Positions 1 to 35,140 of a DNA stretch of 64,000 nucleotides are shown here, one piece after another. This stretch comes from a bacterium (GTDB lineage Bacteria > Patescibacteriota > Patescibacteriia > Patescibacteriales > GWC2-42-12). Under the pieces are notes generated by a model. That model did no database searches, had not been told where the DNA came from, and was given only the letters and a program-made list of their open reading frames with translations. The stretch's first letter is position 1. Every line of letters starts with the position of its first letter. Position numbers and translations under genes: made by a program. Where the stretch lies: contig JAUSGE010000020.1 in the NCBI GenBank assembly GCA_030649205.1, forward strand, positions 850-64,849. Direction: 5' to 3'.

Positions 1-143
1 TGGCAGTTTTTTAAAGTCGGGCTTTGCTCGTTAATGAATTTATACTTTTAAAAGCGGGGGCAGCCTGTCCGCCTCGGGCGGAGGCGCTTTTAAAAAATAG
101 TTTAAAACCTTTTTTTGAATTCAGTTCGAGCTAATTTATAAAA

Positions 144-224
144 TGCCAGCCAATTTGGAAAGGTGTCGCTTCGCGACGCCAGCTCCCACTCAAATTCAGC
201 TAAAAATTCAAACTTTCCGCCTTG
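144..224. repeat. Left inverted repeat (IR-L) of the serine-recombinase cassette
   Basis: tgccagccaatttgg...caaactttccgccttg is the reverse complement (about 85 percent identity by eye, one 3-nt indel) of 2104..2180. On the minus strand it reads [24 protein letters not shown], mirroring the recombinase C-terminus. Confidence 0.85.
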
Positions 225-260
225 CCAGCCAAAAGAAAACTTTTCTTTTTTTAAATTTAG

Positions 261-307
261 ATTAAATAAAAACGAGTCGCGGGCAGTAATTAAACCGCCT
301 GCGACTC
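261..307 (-). terminator. Rho-independent terminator downstream of the 109-aa ORF
   Basis: The minus strand reads gagtcgcaggcgg...ccgcgactc (hairpin) followed by GTTTTTATTT, 13 nt after the stop at 320. Confidence 0.6.
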
Positions 308-319
308 AATGGAAAATCT

Positions 320-649
320 TTAAATTCCCTTTCGCAAAGGGACAACCGAGTCGAAACTGGACTCGATCTCGGGATCAATAATGGCACTACCCTTTTGCTG
401 AAAATAATCAACCAATTCATCCCACGTCATTTGGACCATTATCACCCCCTCAAGTTTCGCAGCAATGATAAGTCTCACGGCTTTCCCCTCTGATGAGAAA
501 ACATAAATTTCTCTACTCCCCTGCGCACAAAGAGTAGAGGACTTATCCTTGGTCTGAATAATTACAACTGGATCGGGATGTGGGATTGATACCTTTATTC
601 CGCTTGCTTCGTTAACCAATACCCCTGGTACTACCTCCTTAAAAGCCAT
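320..649 (-). CDS. Hypothetical protein, 109 aa (element cargo)
   Basis: ORF-track ORF with a GGGAGG Shine-Dalgarno about 8 nt upstream of the ATG and a terminator downstream. Divergent from the recombinase. No family recognised. Confidence 0.6.
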   Translation of the reverse strand: MAFKEVVPGVLVNEASGIKVSIPHPDPVVIIQTKDKSSTLCAQGSREIYVFSSEGKAVRLIIAAKLEGVIMVQMTWDELVDYFQQKGSAIIDPEIESSFDSVVPLRKGI

Positions 650-738
650 GATGCTACCTCCCTTTTTTACATTATTGTTGATAAAGAATATTTCTTTATA
701 AATTTAAAGATTTTTTATAATAACATATAGAACTAACC

Positions 739-2373
739 ATGTCAAATCCAAAATTCTTTCTCTACGCCAGAAAATCCACTGATGATGAAGAACGGCAAAT
801 TTTAAGCATTGAAGCCCAGCTTGCCGAATTAAAAGAATTTGCCAACACAGAAAAACTTGAAATCGCCGCCTCCTTCACGGAGGCAAAAACTGCCAAAGAA
901 CCTGGCCGAATGAAATTCGGCGAAATGCTAGCTTTGATTGAACAAGGCAAGGCTGATGGCATACTTTCATGGCATCCTGACCGTTTAGCCCGCAACCCGA
1001 TTGACGGCGGTAGAATCATCTATATGGTTGATACGGGCAAAATAAAATCTCTCAAATTCCCCTCTTTTTGGTTTGAGGACACGCCACAGGGAAAGTTTAT
1101 GCTTAACATCGCTTTCGGGCAAAGTAAATATTTTATAGACAACCTTTCGGAAAACGTAAAACGAGGCCTTAGACAAAAGCTAAGAAACGGAGTTTATCCG
1201 GGCTGGGCGCCTTTGGGTTATCTAAACGAGCCTAAACGCCACAATATTGTCATTGATCCGGTTAAGCATAAACTTATCCGCAAGCTATTTGAGATATATG
1301 CCGGCGGTGAACATACGCTTGAAGCATTAACGACCAAATTTAACGATCTAGGGCTAACTAGCGTGCGTGATAAGGCCTTACAGCTAAGTATGGCCCATAG
1401 AATACTGCGAAGTCCGTTTTATTACGGCGTGTTCAAATATAAAGGCGAAACCTACCAAGGCAAACACGAGCCAATTATAACCAAGAAGCTTTTTGATCAG
1501 GTACAAGAAGTAATGCGATATAGAGGCAAAAAACGAAAAATAATCAGGCACGGTTTTATCTTTACCGGATTTTTAAAATGCTCTTGCGGCTGTTCTATAA
1601 CCGCCGAAACTAAAAAGGGGCATATCTATTATAGATGCACAAAAAAGAAAGGGCTTTGCGCTGAAAAATATATTAGAGAAGAAAAACTAACAGAGCAATT
1701 TAAAAATATATTACAAAAAGTTTCTTTACCCGATGATTGGGCGGATAAGATGCTAAATGAATTAGATAAAGAAAAAATAACGGCCGCCCAATCATCCGTT
1801 GCCCTTGTCGAAAAAACCCGGGCGGAAATTAATAAAACCGAAACCAGACTTGATAATCTGCTTAATGACCGGATAGACGGGATAATAGAAAAAGCGGATT
1901 ATGTTAATAAAAAAGACAGCCTGATTAAAGAGAAACTGGATTTTCAGGATAAAATAAGAGAAATTAAAGACAAGGGCAATAATTGGCTCGAACCCATGAG
2001 AGATTTTATTTTGCGTTCAAAGTTAGCAAAAAAGACCGCCGATGAAGGCGATCTTTCTGAACTCAAAGCATTTCTAAAAAATATCGGCTCGAACTTTATT
2101 TTGCAAGGCGGAAAGTTTGAATTTTTAGCACAATTTGAGTGGGAGCTGGCATCGCGTAGCGACGCATTTCCCAATTGGCACGGGATGGAGGAATCGAACC
2201 CCCGCATGCGGTTTTGGAGACCGCCGTACTGCCACTATACGAATCCCGCAAAAATAACAGCGACTGGCTGTTATTTAGTTTCTTTATGCAAAGTGTGTTT
2301 TTTGCAGTGCTCGCAGAATTTATTAAGTTCCAAGCGATTTTTCAAAATCTTTTTGTTTTTTCTGGAAAAATAG
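739..2373 (+). CDS. Large serine recombinase (resolvase/invertase N-domain, recombinase domain, zinc ribbon, coiled coil). The 3' end runs antisense through tRNA-Trp and rpmG.
   Basis: N-terminal [21 protein letters not shown] and HPDRLAR motifs, the Cys cluster [10 protein letters not shown]...YYRC...C, and a long K/E-rich helical tail. There is no in-frame stop until 2373, so the last approximately 65 aa are probably not native. Confidence 0.9.
2104..2180. repeat. Right inverted repeat (IR-R), inside the recombinase 3' coding end
   Basis: caaggcggaaagtttgaattttt...cccaattggca is the reverse complement of 144..224. It encodes [25 protein letters not shown]. Confidence 0.85.
2176..2249 (-). 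tRNA. trnW: tRNA-Trp (anticodon CCA), CCA end encoded
   Basis: The minus strand reads GCGGGAT..GGCGGTCTCCAAAACCGC..GGGGGTTCGATTCCTCCATCCCGTGCCA. It folds as a cloverleaf with anticodon loop CTCCAAA and a T-loop GTTCGATTC. Confidence 0.9.
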
Positions 2374-2426
2374 TTGACGCGCTTGCAAGCCGCGCACTCC
2401 AGTTTGATTAGATTATCCTGTGACAT
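2271..2426 (-). CDS. rpmG: 50S ribosomal protein L33 (51 aa, below the ORF-track cutoff)
   Basis: Manual translation: [51 protein letters not shown]. It has the CxxC...CxxC zinc form and the HKE(T)K C-terminus typical of L33. Confidence 0.85.
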
Positions 2427-34488: not shown

Positions 34489-34601
34489 TATCAAGTAAAA
34501 ATTTAGTGGCCGTAGAGCTTTGCTCGCTATTAAATTTTTACTTGATACCTTATATTTTTTGAAAGTATTGAAAACTTTTTCTAAAAAAGTTTTTAAAGGT
34601 T
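34489..34601. repeat. Family 10 hairpin module, full copy, directly upstream of rpsG
   Basis: tatcaagtaaaaatttagtggccgtagagctttgctcgctattaaatttttacttgata plus the gaaaactttttctaaaaaagttttt hairpin. Confidence 0.9.
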
Positions 34602-35029: not shown

Positions 35030-35140
35030 TATCAAGTTAAAATTTAATGGCCGTAGAGCTTTGCTCGCTATTAAATTTTTACTTGATACCTTATATTTTT
35101 TGAAAGTATTGAAAACTTTTTTGAAAAAGTTTTCAAGGGG
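35030..35140. repeat. Family 10 hairpin module, full copy, directly upstream of rpsL
   Basis: Near-identical to 34489..34601. Confidence 0.9.

Follow-up and report, generated by a model that had tools for sequence, protein, structure and literature searches.

Serine integrases are widely used as tools for genome engineering, and their natural attachment (att) sites are normally intergenic, single and located outside tRNA genes. The large serine recombinases (LSRs) of the phage type (Listeria A118/LI, phiC31, Bxb1 and SPbeta SprA), together with CcrA/B and XisF, share a domain set that includes a coiled-coil insert, and the phage-type enzymes act at short att sites with a small shared core. 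LSRs cut both strands with a 2-nt stagger at a central dinucleotide, and they recombine attP with attB unidirectionally. In LI integrase, attP has the motif recognized by the zinc-ribbon domain (ZD) 5 bp farther from the centre than attB does (Rutherford et al., PMC3783163). Here we analyse an LSR locus of a patescibacterium that combines these features with an unusual placement of its att sites. It lies at the left end of a stretch of 64,000 nt (contig JAUSGE010000020.1, positions 850 to 64,849; hereafter the window), where the LSR gene is bracketed by inverted repeats and abuts tRNA-Trp. From comparison with related loci, we consider it very likely that positions 1–2249 of the window represent the LSR-proximal end of a small integrative element inserted in the 3' end of tRNA-Trp, with attP located in the last codons of the LSR gene and with the left repeat forming part of a second, inverted attP (attP*).

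The preliminary description of this stretch had recognized the inverted copies, placing the left one from position 144 and judging the pair to be about 85% identical. A repeat search confirmed the pair itself but set the arms at 149–225 and 2103–2179, with 70 of 77 nt identical (91%) and a longest perfect block of 27 nt. The runner-up inverted pair in the first 3 kb of the window spans 31 nt at 77% identity, and a binomial estimate gives ~1e-24 pairs with at least 70 of 77 matches expected by chance anywhere in the 64 kb. No third copy of the 77-nt repeat was found by BLAST in the window. As had been described, the right arm (plus strand) comprises the final 25 LSR codons before the junction, ending in ..FPNW; we assign it as the P arm of attR. 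The left arm, assigned as the P arm of attP*, encodes the same peptide with two substitutions on the minus strand, where the frame continues into the native-type tail LAFYKLARTEFKKRF (102–149, minus strand), which ends in a stop codon at 102–104 and is followed by a hairpin. Five of the seven mismatches between the arms fall at third codon positions and two at first positions. An enrichment of third-position differences (37 of 76 mismatches, p=0.004) was considered as a sign of coding constraint on the left arm, but is non-discriminating, since the coding right arm alone predicts it.

The LSR gene (739–2181, plus strand; 481 codons up to the attR core) forms part of an open reading frame (ORF) that extends from 739 to 2373 and encodes 544 aa. 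Beyond the core, the frame enters an extension created by the junction (2182–2373), where it is antisense first to tRNA-Trp and then to the 3' end of rpmG (2271–2426, minus strand). This read-through, of 64 codons, had been noted before. In two close relatives (L001 and L003) the counterpart of this tail is only HGW-stop. The integration target, tRNA-Trp(CCA) (2176–2249, minus strand), constitutes the B' half-site and is intact, with its positions 72–76 provided by the right repeat. The attR core, TGGCAC (2176–2181, plus strand), is the reverse complement of tRNA positions 71–76, and the element supplies the encoded CCA.

By the defining features tested, the predicted enzyme is a large serine integrase that is distant both from the named families and from solved structures. 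Pfam searches identified the Resolvase (PF00239, E=1.4e-20, residues 7–152), Recombinase (PF07508, E=5.8e-15) and Zn_ribbon_recom (PF13408, E=3.3e-8) domains, and the serine nucleophile, S13, is invariant in 34 aligned homologues. The protein matches the integrase family phrog_95 in PHROGs; the match to phrog_125, annotated as DNA invertase, covers residues 5–261 only, and matches in the PDB cover only the N-terminal domain. Scores against the NCBIfam equivalog models for CcrB (100.6 bits, cut-off 900) and XisF (85.4 bits, cut-off 375) were far below threshold. An AlphaFold2 (AF2) model (mean predicted local distance difference test score, pLDDT, 71) contains resolvase, recombinase and zinc-ribbon domains, with coiled-coil helices at 332–379 and 385–412 after the zinc-ribbon strands. 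The C-terminus is modelled with low confidence from residue 450, with pLDDT below 50 at 450–465 and 477–481. Hin/Gin-type invertases are small (~190 aa), end in a helix-turn-helix (HTH) and act at ~26-bp sites, whereas this protein has at least 481 residues and integrase-type C-terminal domains and is associated with 77-nt repeats.

In order to place the locus in its family, we compared ~100 loci: four close ones (L001–L004), 80 from GTDB genomes with 50–71% protein identity, eight metagenome contigs carrying the repeat core of the window, and several obtained via cluster members. A protein search returned at least 7966 significant relatives of the LSR. Patescibacteria account for most of them, and Nitrospirota, Brocadia, Omnitrophota and others for the rest. 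Divergence of the C-termini directly past the W of ..FPNW makes these proteins differ in length (476–577 aa). Among the best 120 homologues, 68 continue with ..[DE]SNP.., the signature that results from antisense translation of the tRNA T-arm GGATTCGAACC; many others terminate within 2–4 codons past the junction, and a few have a tail of the form x-x-[LF]-x-x-[IVA]-R-T-x-F, resembling that encoded by the left copy. The LSR ORF runs into a minus-strand tRNA at 58 of 84 loci, and 13 tRNA species serve as targets (Ser, Gln, Leu, Arg, Trp, Asn, Pro, Val, Phe, Tyr, Ala, Glu and Lys). Searches against Rfam detected no RNA families other than tRNAs. The cargo seen in the family includes restriction-modification systems and membrane proteins. 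A phage origin was considered and rejected, as viral contigs contain few and only distant members of the family (17 loci, best identity 46%).

Alignment of 45 attR/attP* pairs at the tRNA 3' end revealed the same sequence through a 6-nt core and divergence beyond it. In each case the core corresponds to the reverse complement of tRNA positions 71–76 (TGGCAC, TGGCGG, TGGTGC and others). In the B' half-site of attR, 41 of 45 loci have CGAAC of the tRNA T-loop at +19, counted from the first base of the core. In the P' half-site of the inverted copy the same motif is located at +24 in 30 of 38 loci, and the two positions differ by 5 bp in 30 of 38. The window conforms to this pattern, with TCGAAC at 2194–2199 in the T-loop of tRNA-Trp (positions 19–24 from the core) and at 124–129 on the minus strand of the left copy (positions 24–29 from the core T). 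Judged from these alignments, the TCGAAC of P' is a mimic of the tRNA T-loop, set at the canonical 5-bp attP/attB offset of LSRs. The conserved ‘RT’ of the native tail is this same region, read as CGA-ACN. In this LSR clade attP is located in the last codons of the gene, the P arm being the codons that end in ..FPNW.

The opposite boundary of the element can be recognized in the relatives. P' (85–250 nt) recurs in inverted orientation 0.8–7 kb further from the tRNA, mostly with 100% identity, and marks attL. We located 26 attL junctions with P' in the expected orientation, which give element lengths of 2.5–9 kb; that of the syntenic locus L001 is at 2448. The homology between attL and the inverted copy starts at core position 3–4, and that between attR and the inverted copy stops at position 6, placing the crossover within positions 3/4–6. 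The outer (B) arms at attL are either unrelated tRNA-trailer sequences or remnants of older recombinases, and the latter indicate tandem accretion at one tRNA. In L017 (4124–4714) and L036 (~980), the new P' adjoins an outer arm derived from the 3' end of a decaying, older recombinase of the family. Overall, the 58 of 84 ORFs that enter tRNA genes, the 45 pairs with a shared core and the 26 attL junctions strongly support a tRNA-targeting integrative element, one of two readings offered in the preliminary description. The inversion or rearrangement invoked there is not needed, as an inverted copy is a standard part of these elements.

With regard to the docking of the repeats, the earlier proposal that the right repeat supplies the end of tRNA-Trp is borne out. 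The TGCCA assigned to the left repeat (144–148) is 4 nt out of register, and the true core of the inverted copy is TGGCTG (147–152, minus strand), which differs from the attR core at positions 5–6. This core is of the tRNA-Gln type and is also found at tRNA-Gln in L007, L016, L061 and L069. Near-identical repeats are fused to tRNA-Glu or tRNA-Gln instead of tRNA-Trp in L090 (1373–1577, 96%) and L092 (9257–9403, 86%). A single LSR lineage can use several tRNAs (Trp, Glu and Gln), and, from the sequences compared, the core and the GGAATCGAACC T-arm seem to be all that target choice requires. The cores at several attL junctions are TAGCAC, TTGCGG or GTGCGG and the displaced tRNA ends are ..GCTA, ..GCAA or ..GCAC instead of ..GCCA (L001 at 2448, L010, L011, L020, L021, L043, L054 and L080). 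The sequence of these junctions suggests that CCA was not encoded by the tRNA genes concerned prior to insertion and is now contributed by the P arm of the element.

We then turned to the left repeat. In the relatives, attP* is made up of a P arm, a core, a P' that includes the native tail with its stop codon, and the hairpin, and it lies 20–150 nt upstream of the LSR start. The left copy in the window has the P arm, core, P' and hairpin and is therefore a complete inverted attP. Its distal P' (12–101, minus strand) is 3' untranslated and homologous to the region past the native stop in L004 (8562–8690); it contains the hairpin (~50–95) between A and T runs, which was not called by a simple terminator scan. 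Two 27-nt segments elsewhere in the window (34517–34543 and 35058–35084, 541 nt apart) weakly resemble positions 21–47 (85%, E=0.004), probably by chance or through a shared hairpin-like motif. Across the family, attP* was detected in 67 loci and in L002 and L003, making 69 of 72 testable loci, and is truly missing from the other three; seven further loci with too little upstream sequence and five that end before the gene's own arm could not be scored. The arms match perfectly (100%) in 35 loci, are at least 98% identical in 50 and less than 95% identical in 8; their median length is 99 nt.

This conservation bears on whether the left repeat is simply debris, namely the 3' end of a second, decayed and oppositely oriented recombinase gene that no longer has a role. 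The divergence seen in the window is in keeping with such an origin: the left arm is 91% identical to the right one and its P' is ~79% identical to that of relatives whose LSR is 94% identical, the cores differ, and the mismatches are mostly synonymous, as if the copies had diverged while coding. Furthermore, tandem accretion with decaying recombinases does occur in the family, as in the attL arms of L017 (4124–4714) and L036. Tandem accretion yields direct rather than inverted copies, however, and the left repeat matches the position, orientation and extent of the attP* that is conserved in 69 of 72 loci, from the P arm through the core, P' and hairpin to the beginning of the adjoining ‘ext’ block, with the remnant of the leader on the inner side. 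The preliminary description had named a longer, independently decayed gene as a possible source of the left repeat, but tblastn detected no LSR homology beyond the repeat, that is, no recombinase similarity beyond position 236. We therefore regard debris as a decidedly unlikely explanation. The right arm of the window is 100% identical to both arms of L002 and of L003 and the LSR gene is 94% identical to that of L003, whereas the left arm is only 91% identical to the right and the left P' region only ~79% identical to any relative. On this sequence comparison the window element is a mosaic, in which the left copy appears to come from a different lineage than the LSR gene. In L002 and L003, the closest metagenome relatives, both arms are 100% identical and the LSR is frameshifted (ORFs of 330 aa and 146 aa; ~1542–2985 in L003).

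The bracketing of a recombinase gene by inverted repeats also recalls an insertion sequence (IS)-like transposon with terminal inverted repeats and a serine-recombinase transposase, in which case the mobile unit would be 149–2179. The right repeat overlaps the 3' end of the gene, as in many IS elements, and many short contigs, such as L006, L047 and L053, consist only of repeat, gene and repeat. Assembly breaks at repeats no shorter than the k-mer account for these contigs, however, and the attL and attR boundaries lie elsewhere and include cargo. Moreover, the left repeat extends outward into the conserved P' and a further block, termed ‘ext’ (see below), and insertions are always at tRNA 3' ends, with a shared 6-nt core and no target duplication. 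An IS-like unit is accordingly highly improbable. Similarly, there is hardly any chance that the arrangement is an assembly artefact, in which a repeat caused sequences of a metagenome-assembled genome to be joined chimerically or in the wrong orientation. The contig does come from an uncultured organism and repeats do break assemblies of this family, but the same architecture occurs in more than 60 independent assemblies made with different assemblers, and the seven differences between the copies in the window rule out collapse or duplication by the assembler.

Several relatives provide insight into the forms that such an element can take. Two unintegrated forms, L004 and L093, have two full inverted arms and no tRNA. 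L004 carries a type I restriction-modification system, with arms of ~202 nt (97% identical), and L093 an HTH gene and a TaqI-like endonuclease, with arms of 111 nt (87% identical); the two represent the two possible isomers relative to ext. A flipped integrated state was observed in L037 and L066, in which the plus-strand tRNA is fused to a P-arm stub without a gene and the LSR points away from it; in L066 the LSR retains its native P'. A simpler form, L112 (1–3985), is unintegrated and has only the upstream inverted attP, its 472-aa LSR (P0197) ending just past GSNFIL. The identical protein is encoded in L113 (978–2620) and L114 (37–1680), which are integrated via the upstream attP at two different tRNA-Ser genes. 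These insertions show that the upstream copy is a working attP and that the C-terminus encoded by the repeat is dispensable, in agreement with the low confidence of this region in the AF2 model. Both attP copies are seen in use among natural elements. Overall, the tRNA-fused form (state 1) predominates among the loci, by ~58 to 4 over the other forms.

Together, these observations show that integration joins the P arm to the tRNA, creating the right repeat, the junction and the junction-made tail, and moves P' to the far end of the element, which here lies to the left of the window. They are also consistent with the following model for the integrative element. The excised circle would have two inverted attP sites, either of them usable for integration, and these would split it into a recombinase segment and a cargo segment. 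The long identical arms could recombine with each other, which would both keep them identical and flip the recombinase segment, interconverting a tRNA-fused form that is convergent with the tRNA and a native-tail form that is co-oriented with it. The near-perfect identity of the arms over 200–350 bp, including synonymous and non-coding sites, leads us to infer continuing recombination or gene conversion. Since serine recombinases make no heteroduplex, this homogenization is probably due to host homologous recombination. In the common state the LSR would be convergent with the tRNA and would lack its own terminator and tail, and transcripts reading through from the tRNA would run antisense to the LSR, ending at the attP* hairpin. 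In the flipped or simple state the LSR would instead lie downstream of the tRNA in the same direction, with its native end. The ratio of ~58:4 fits a stable silent state and a transient or disfavoured one, as far as counts of sequenced loci can indicate.

The second reading offered in the preliminary description was a self-inverting switch with crossover sites inside the recombinase gene, in which the LSR or host recombination would flip the 1.9-kb segment and so toggle the C-terminus of the enzyme. The geometry is exactly right for this: inversion would, as had been pointed out, exchange the long tail for a compact, terminated one. In addition, the arms of most relatives are 98–100% identical, as expected for recombining repeats, and both orientation states occur among the relatives. 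The crossover site inside the gene and the two states make the switch a possibility at the level of the family. The window itself presents a different picture. Serine recombinases need matching central dinucleotides for religation, and the two cores in the window differ at the likely crossover bases (TGGCTG and TGGCAC, positions 5–6). The central dinucleotide of LSR sites has been described (PMC3783163). The identity of 91% and longest perfect block of 27 nt are also poor for homologous recombination. Furthermore, state 1 exceeds state 2 by ~58 to 4, none of the eight metagenome contigs of the lineage is flipped, and the two states were seen only in different lineages, where an invertible segment would show both orientations in one population. 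We therefore think it unlikely that an active switch operates in this genome. Although the proposed exchange of tails is formally correct, flipping in the window is probably blocked by the differing cores and the limited identity of the arms, leaving the arrangement frozen in the tRNA-fused state.

Two further lines of evidence for inversion were examined among the relatives and rejected. Contig ends at the repeat were considered as evidence of inversion polymorphism, but the overlaps equal assembler k-mer sizes (55, 99 and 141) and represent ordinary repeat breaks. Likewise, differing native-type tails on near-identical LSRs do not prove attP x attP recombination, because tandem accretion gives the same pattern, with an old P arm joined to a new P'.

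A number of points weigh against the integrative-element model or parts of it. The P arm has no T-loop-like motif at the mirror position in the 45 aligned junctions, and attP is consequently more asymmetric than textbook LSR sites. No circular junction was observed among the loci, and no sample contained two orientations of one element, the eight metagenome contigs of the lineage being all state 1 or uninformative. As the attL of this element would be left of the window, integration here is deduced from the relatives and the attR junction only. Recombination between the arms is inferred from their near-identity, and recent integration of already-identical copies would look alike.

In addition to the att sites, two further sequences stand out. 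The first, designated ‘seg’ (2074–2102, plus strand), comprises the codons for KNIGSNFIL and contains a third TCGAAC within GGC TCG AAC (2086–2094), just inside the repeat boundary. The invariant Gly-Ser-Asn is encoded as GG[CT]-TCG-AAC, with TCG and AAC each present in 78 of 78 loci, compared with gene-wide frequencies of 18% of Ser codons for TCG and 36% of Asn codons for AAC. Judged by this codon usage, the TCGAAC of seg is under constraint at the nucleotide level. The possibility that seg is a full att site with its own core was rejected, as no core-like sequence occurs at B-type or P-type spacing from TCGAAC. In one subfamily, with repeats of 127–160 nt, the repeat begins exactly at the seg motif, and in the other, which includes the window, it begins ~10 nt past it. 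Members of the long-repeat subfamily also have an imperfect palindrome of 26–47 nt in the coding sequence directly upstream of the repeat (L048 4646–4681; L031, L056, L074, L079 and L080).

The second sequence, ext, lies on the outer side of attP* in the subfamily of the window, which is cut within it: only the first 11 nt are present (1–11, minus strand, aaaaactgcca), and these are a copy of LSR codons ~49–52 (885–895). In the relatives (L003 1230–1304, L017 5699–5776 and L004 8680–8755) ext is itself a mosaic of copies of LSR codons ~49–55 (20 nt), of seg (27 nt) and of the 5' leader; window positions 885–904 match L003 1304–1285. The seg copy is fused in frame to the 20-nt copy in L003 and L017, which belong to two lineages (by eye), and the arrangement of 20-mer plus seg is present in subfamily A loci. 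Each piece of ext tracks the gene of its own locus even at synonymous sites. In L003, a sigma-70-like promoter points through ext toward the P' hairpin. Proteins that diverge right after GSNFIL (P0141, P0197 and others), together with the layout of L112–L114, are the expected product of a deletion between two seg copies. Seg and ext may be accessory recombinase sites, an antisense regulator or a by-product.

It is tempting to consider that the inverted attP, seg and ext form a built-in switch of orientation and C-terminus for an integrase that works without a separate directionality factor. The flip would move the LSR from a silent, tRNA-convergent and tail-swapped state to a co-oriented state with the native tail, so that orientation would decide between staying integrated and leaving. 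The same LSR would perform attP x attR exchanges that preserve the type of each site, with seg as an accessory site. On the present sequence comparisons we regard this proposal as rather doubtful.

The remaining features of the locus concern its flanks and the region upstream of the LSR. Positions 1–257 of the window align to L003 (1294–1534) and L004 (6897–7123), and 226–257 (plus strand) is a remnant of the usual LSR 5' leader that adjoins attP* in the relatives. It is followed by an inserted variable slot of ~480 nt (258–738, minus strand), which replaces the usual leader and the start codon of the LSR and leaves the LSR ORF itself intact. The slot encodes ORF109 (320–649, minus strand; 109 aa), preceded by a strong, near-consensus sigma-70-like promoter at 745–717 on the minus strand, which overlaps the start of the LSR ORF. 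ORF109 (P0205) has no family in Pfam or PHROGs, a single sub-threshold match in NCBIfam (lmo0673 family, 17.1 bits, cut-off 80) and only three homologues, all distant. In L001 (9556–9864) and L088 the slot holds other, unrelated small ORFs. On the other side, a hairpin with a T-run is present on the minus strand at 2252–2276, between rpmG and tRNA-Trp. As this leaves little room (~3 nt) before the 5' end of the tRNA (2249), tRNA-Trp is probably made by read-through or processing of a Thr-Tyr-rpmG transcript. The preliminary description had regarded secE-nusG as displaced from tRNA-Trp; in the syntenic L001, neither a NusG nor a SecE domain is present in the product of the gene to the left of the element.

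The window contains a somewhat decayed example of an architecture by which a very large environmental clade of LSRs follows different att rules, with attP in the last codons of the gene, a T-loop-mimic P' and a near base-perfect second attP. Through these rules, sequence alone could reveal the attP/attB pairs of hundreds of new integrases. The clade would represent a main class of small cargo carriers in Patescibacteria, whose mobile DNA is poorly known, and the architecture explains both the erratic C-termini of these genes and the contig breaks at them. It also raises the question of what purpose the duplicated inverted attP serves and by which route elements of 2.5 kb leave without a visible directionality factor. 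In full-text literature searches, whose coverage is incomplete so that an earlier description is possible, we found no serine integrase that has attP in the final codons of its gene together with a half-site mimicking the T-loop and a conserved inverted duplicate of attP.

Compared with the phage-type LSRs, whose domain set, short sites, small core and 5-bp offset it shares, the clade is distant in sequence and rare in viral contigs, has attP inside the LSR ORF, targets the 3' ends of many tRNA genes and has a second, inverted attP as part of the element. Its elements of 2.5–3 kb show no evident candidate for a directionality factor, another difference from the phage systems. An attP within the integrase gene is known from the SSV-type (type I) archaeal tyrosine integrases, where integration into a tRNA alters the integrase ORF. 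Those enzymes differ in their chemistry and in their archaeal hosts; their gene is split into two large parts, whereas here a 15-codon tail is lost, and they are not known to have a duplicated inverted attP. In the integration-dependent immunity of mycobacteriophages (BPs, Brujita and Charlie), attP lies in coding sequence and integration swaps the C-terminus of a protein. There it is the repressor that is affected, the integrase is a tyrosine recombinase and no inverted copy of attP is known. Islands that target tRNA genes, including tycheposons, are likewise small cargo elements at tRNA 3' ends that restore the tRNA and accrete in tandem, but they have long direct repeats of the tRNA end, whereas the family described here shares 6 nt only. 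Tycheposons encode tyrosine integrases in 910 of 937 cases, the remainder having an LSR (10.1101/2020.12.28.424599). The circle predicted from L004 and L093 resembles the yeast 2-micron plasmid, with its FLP recombinase and FRT sites in 599-bp inverted repeats, in that repeats bearing recombinase sites divide it into recombinase and cargo segments; the plasmid differs in using a tyrosine recombinase, in its eukaryotic host and in replicating, with a role in amplification, and no replication genes were seen in the elements of this family. Finally, the recombinase gene lies within a segment bracketed by inverted repeats, as in Hin, and the crossover sites lie in coding sequence so that C-termini are exchanged, as in Gin, Cin, Pin and the shufflons. 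Hin, Gin, Cin and Pin are small serine recombinases (~190 aa) that use 26-bp sites and a Fis enhancer, and shufflons use the tyrosine recombinase Rci, whereas the family of the window combines an integrase-type protein of 480 aa with repeats of 200–350 bp that comprise a whole attP and of which one arm is fused to a tRNA.

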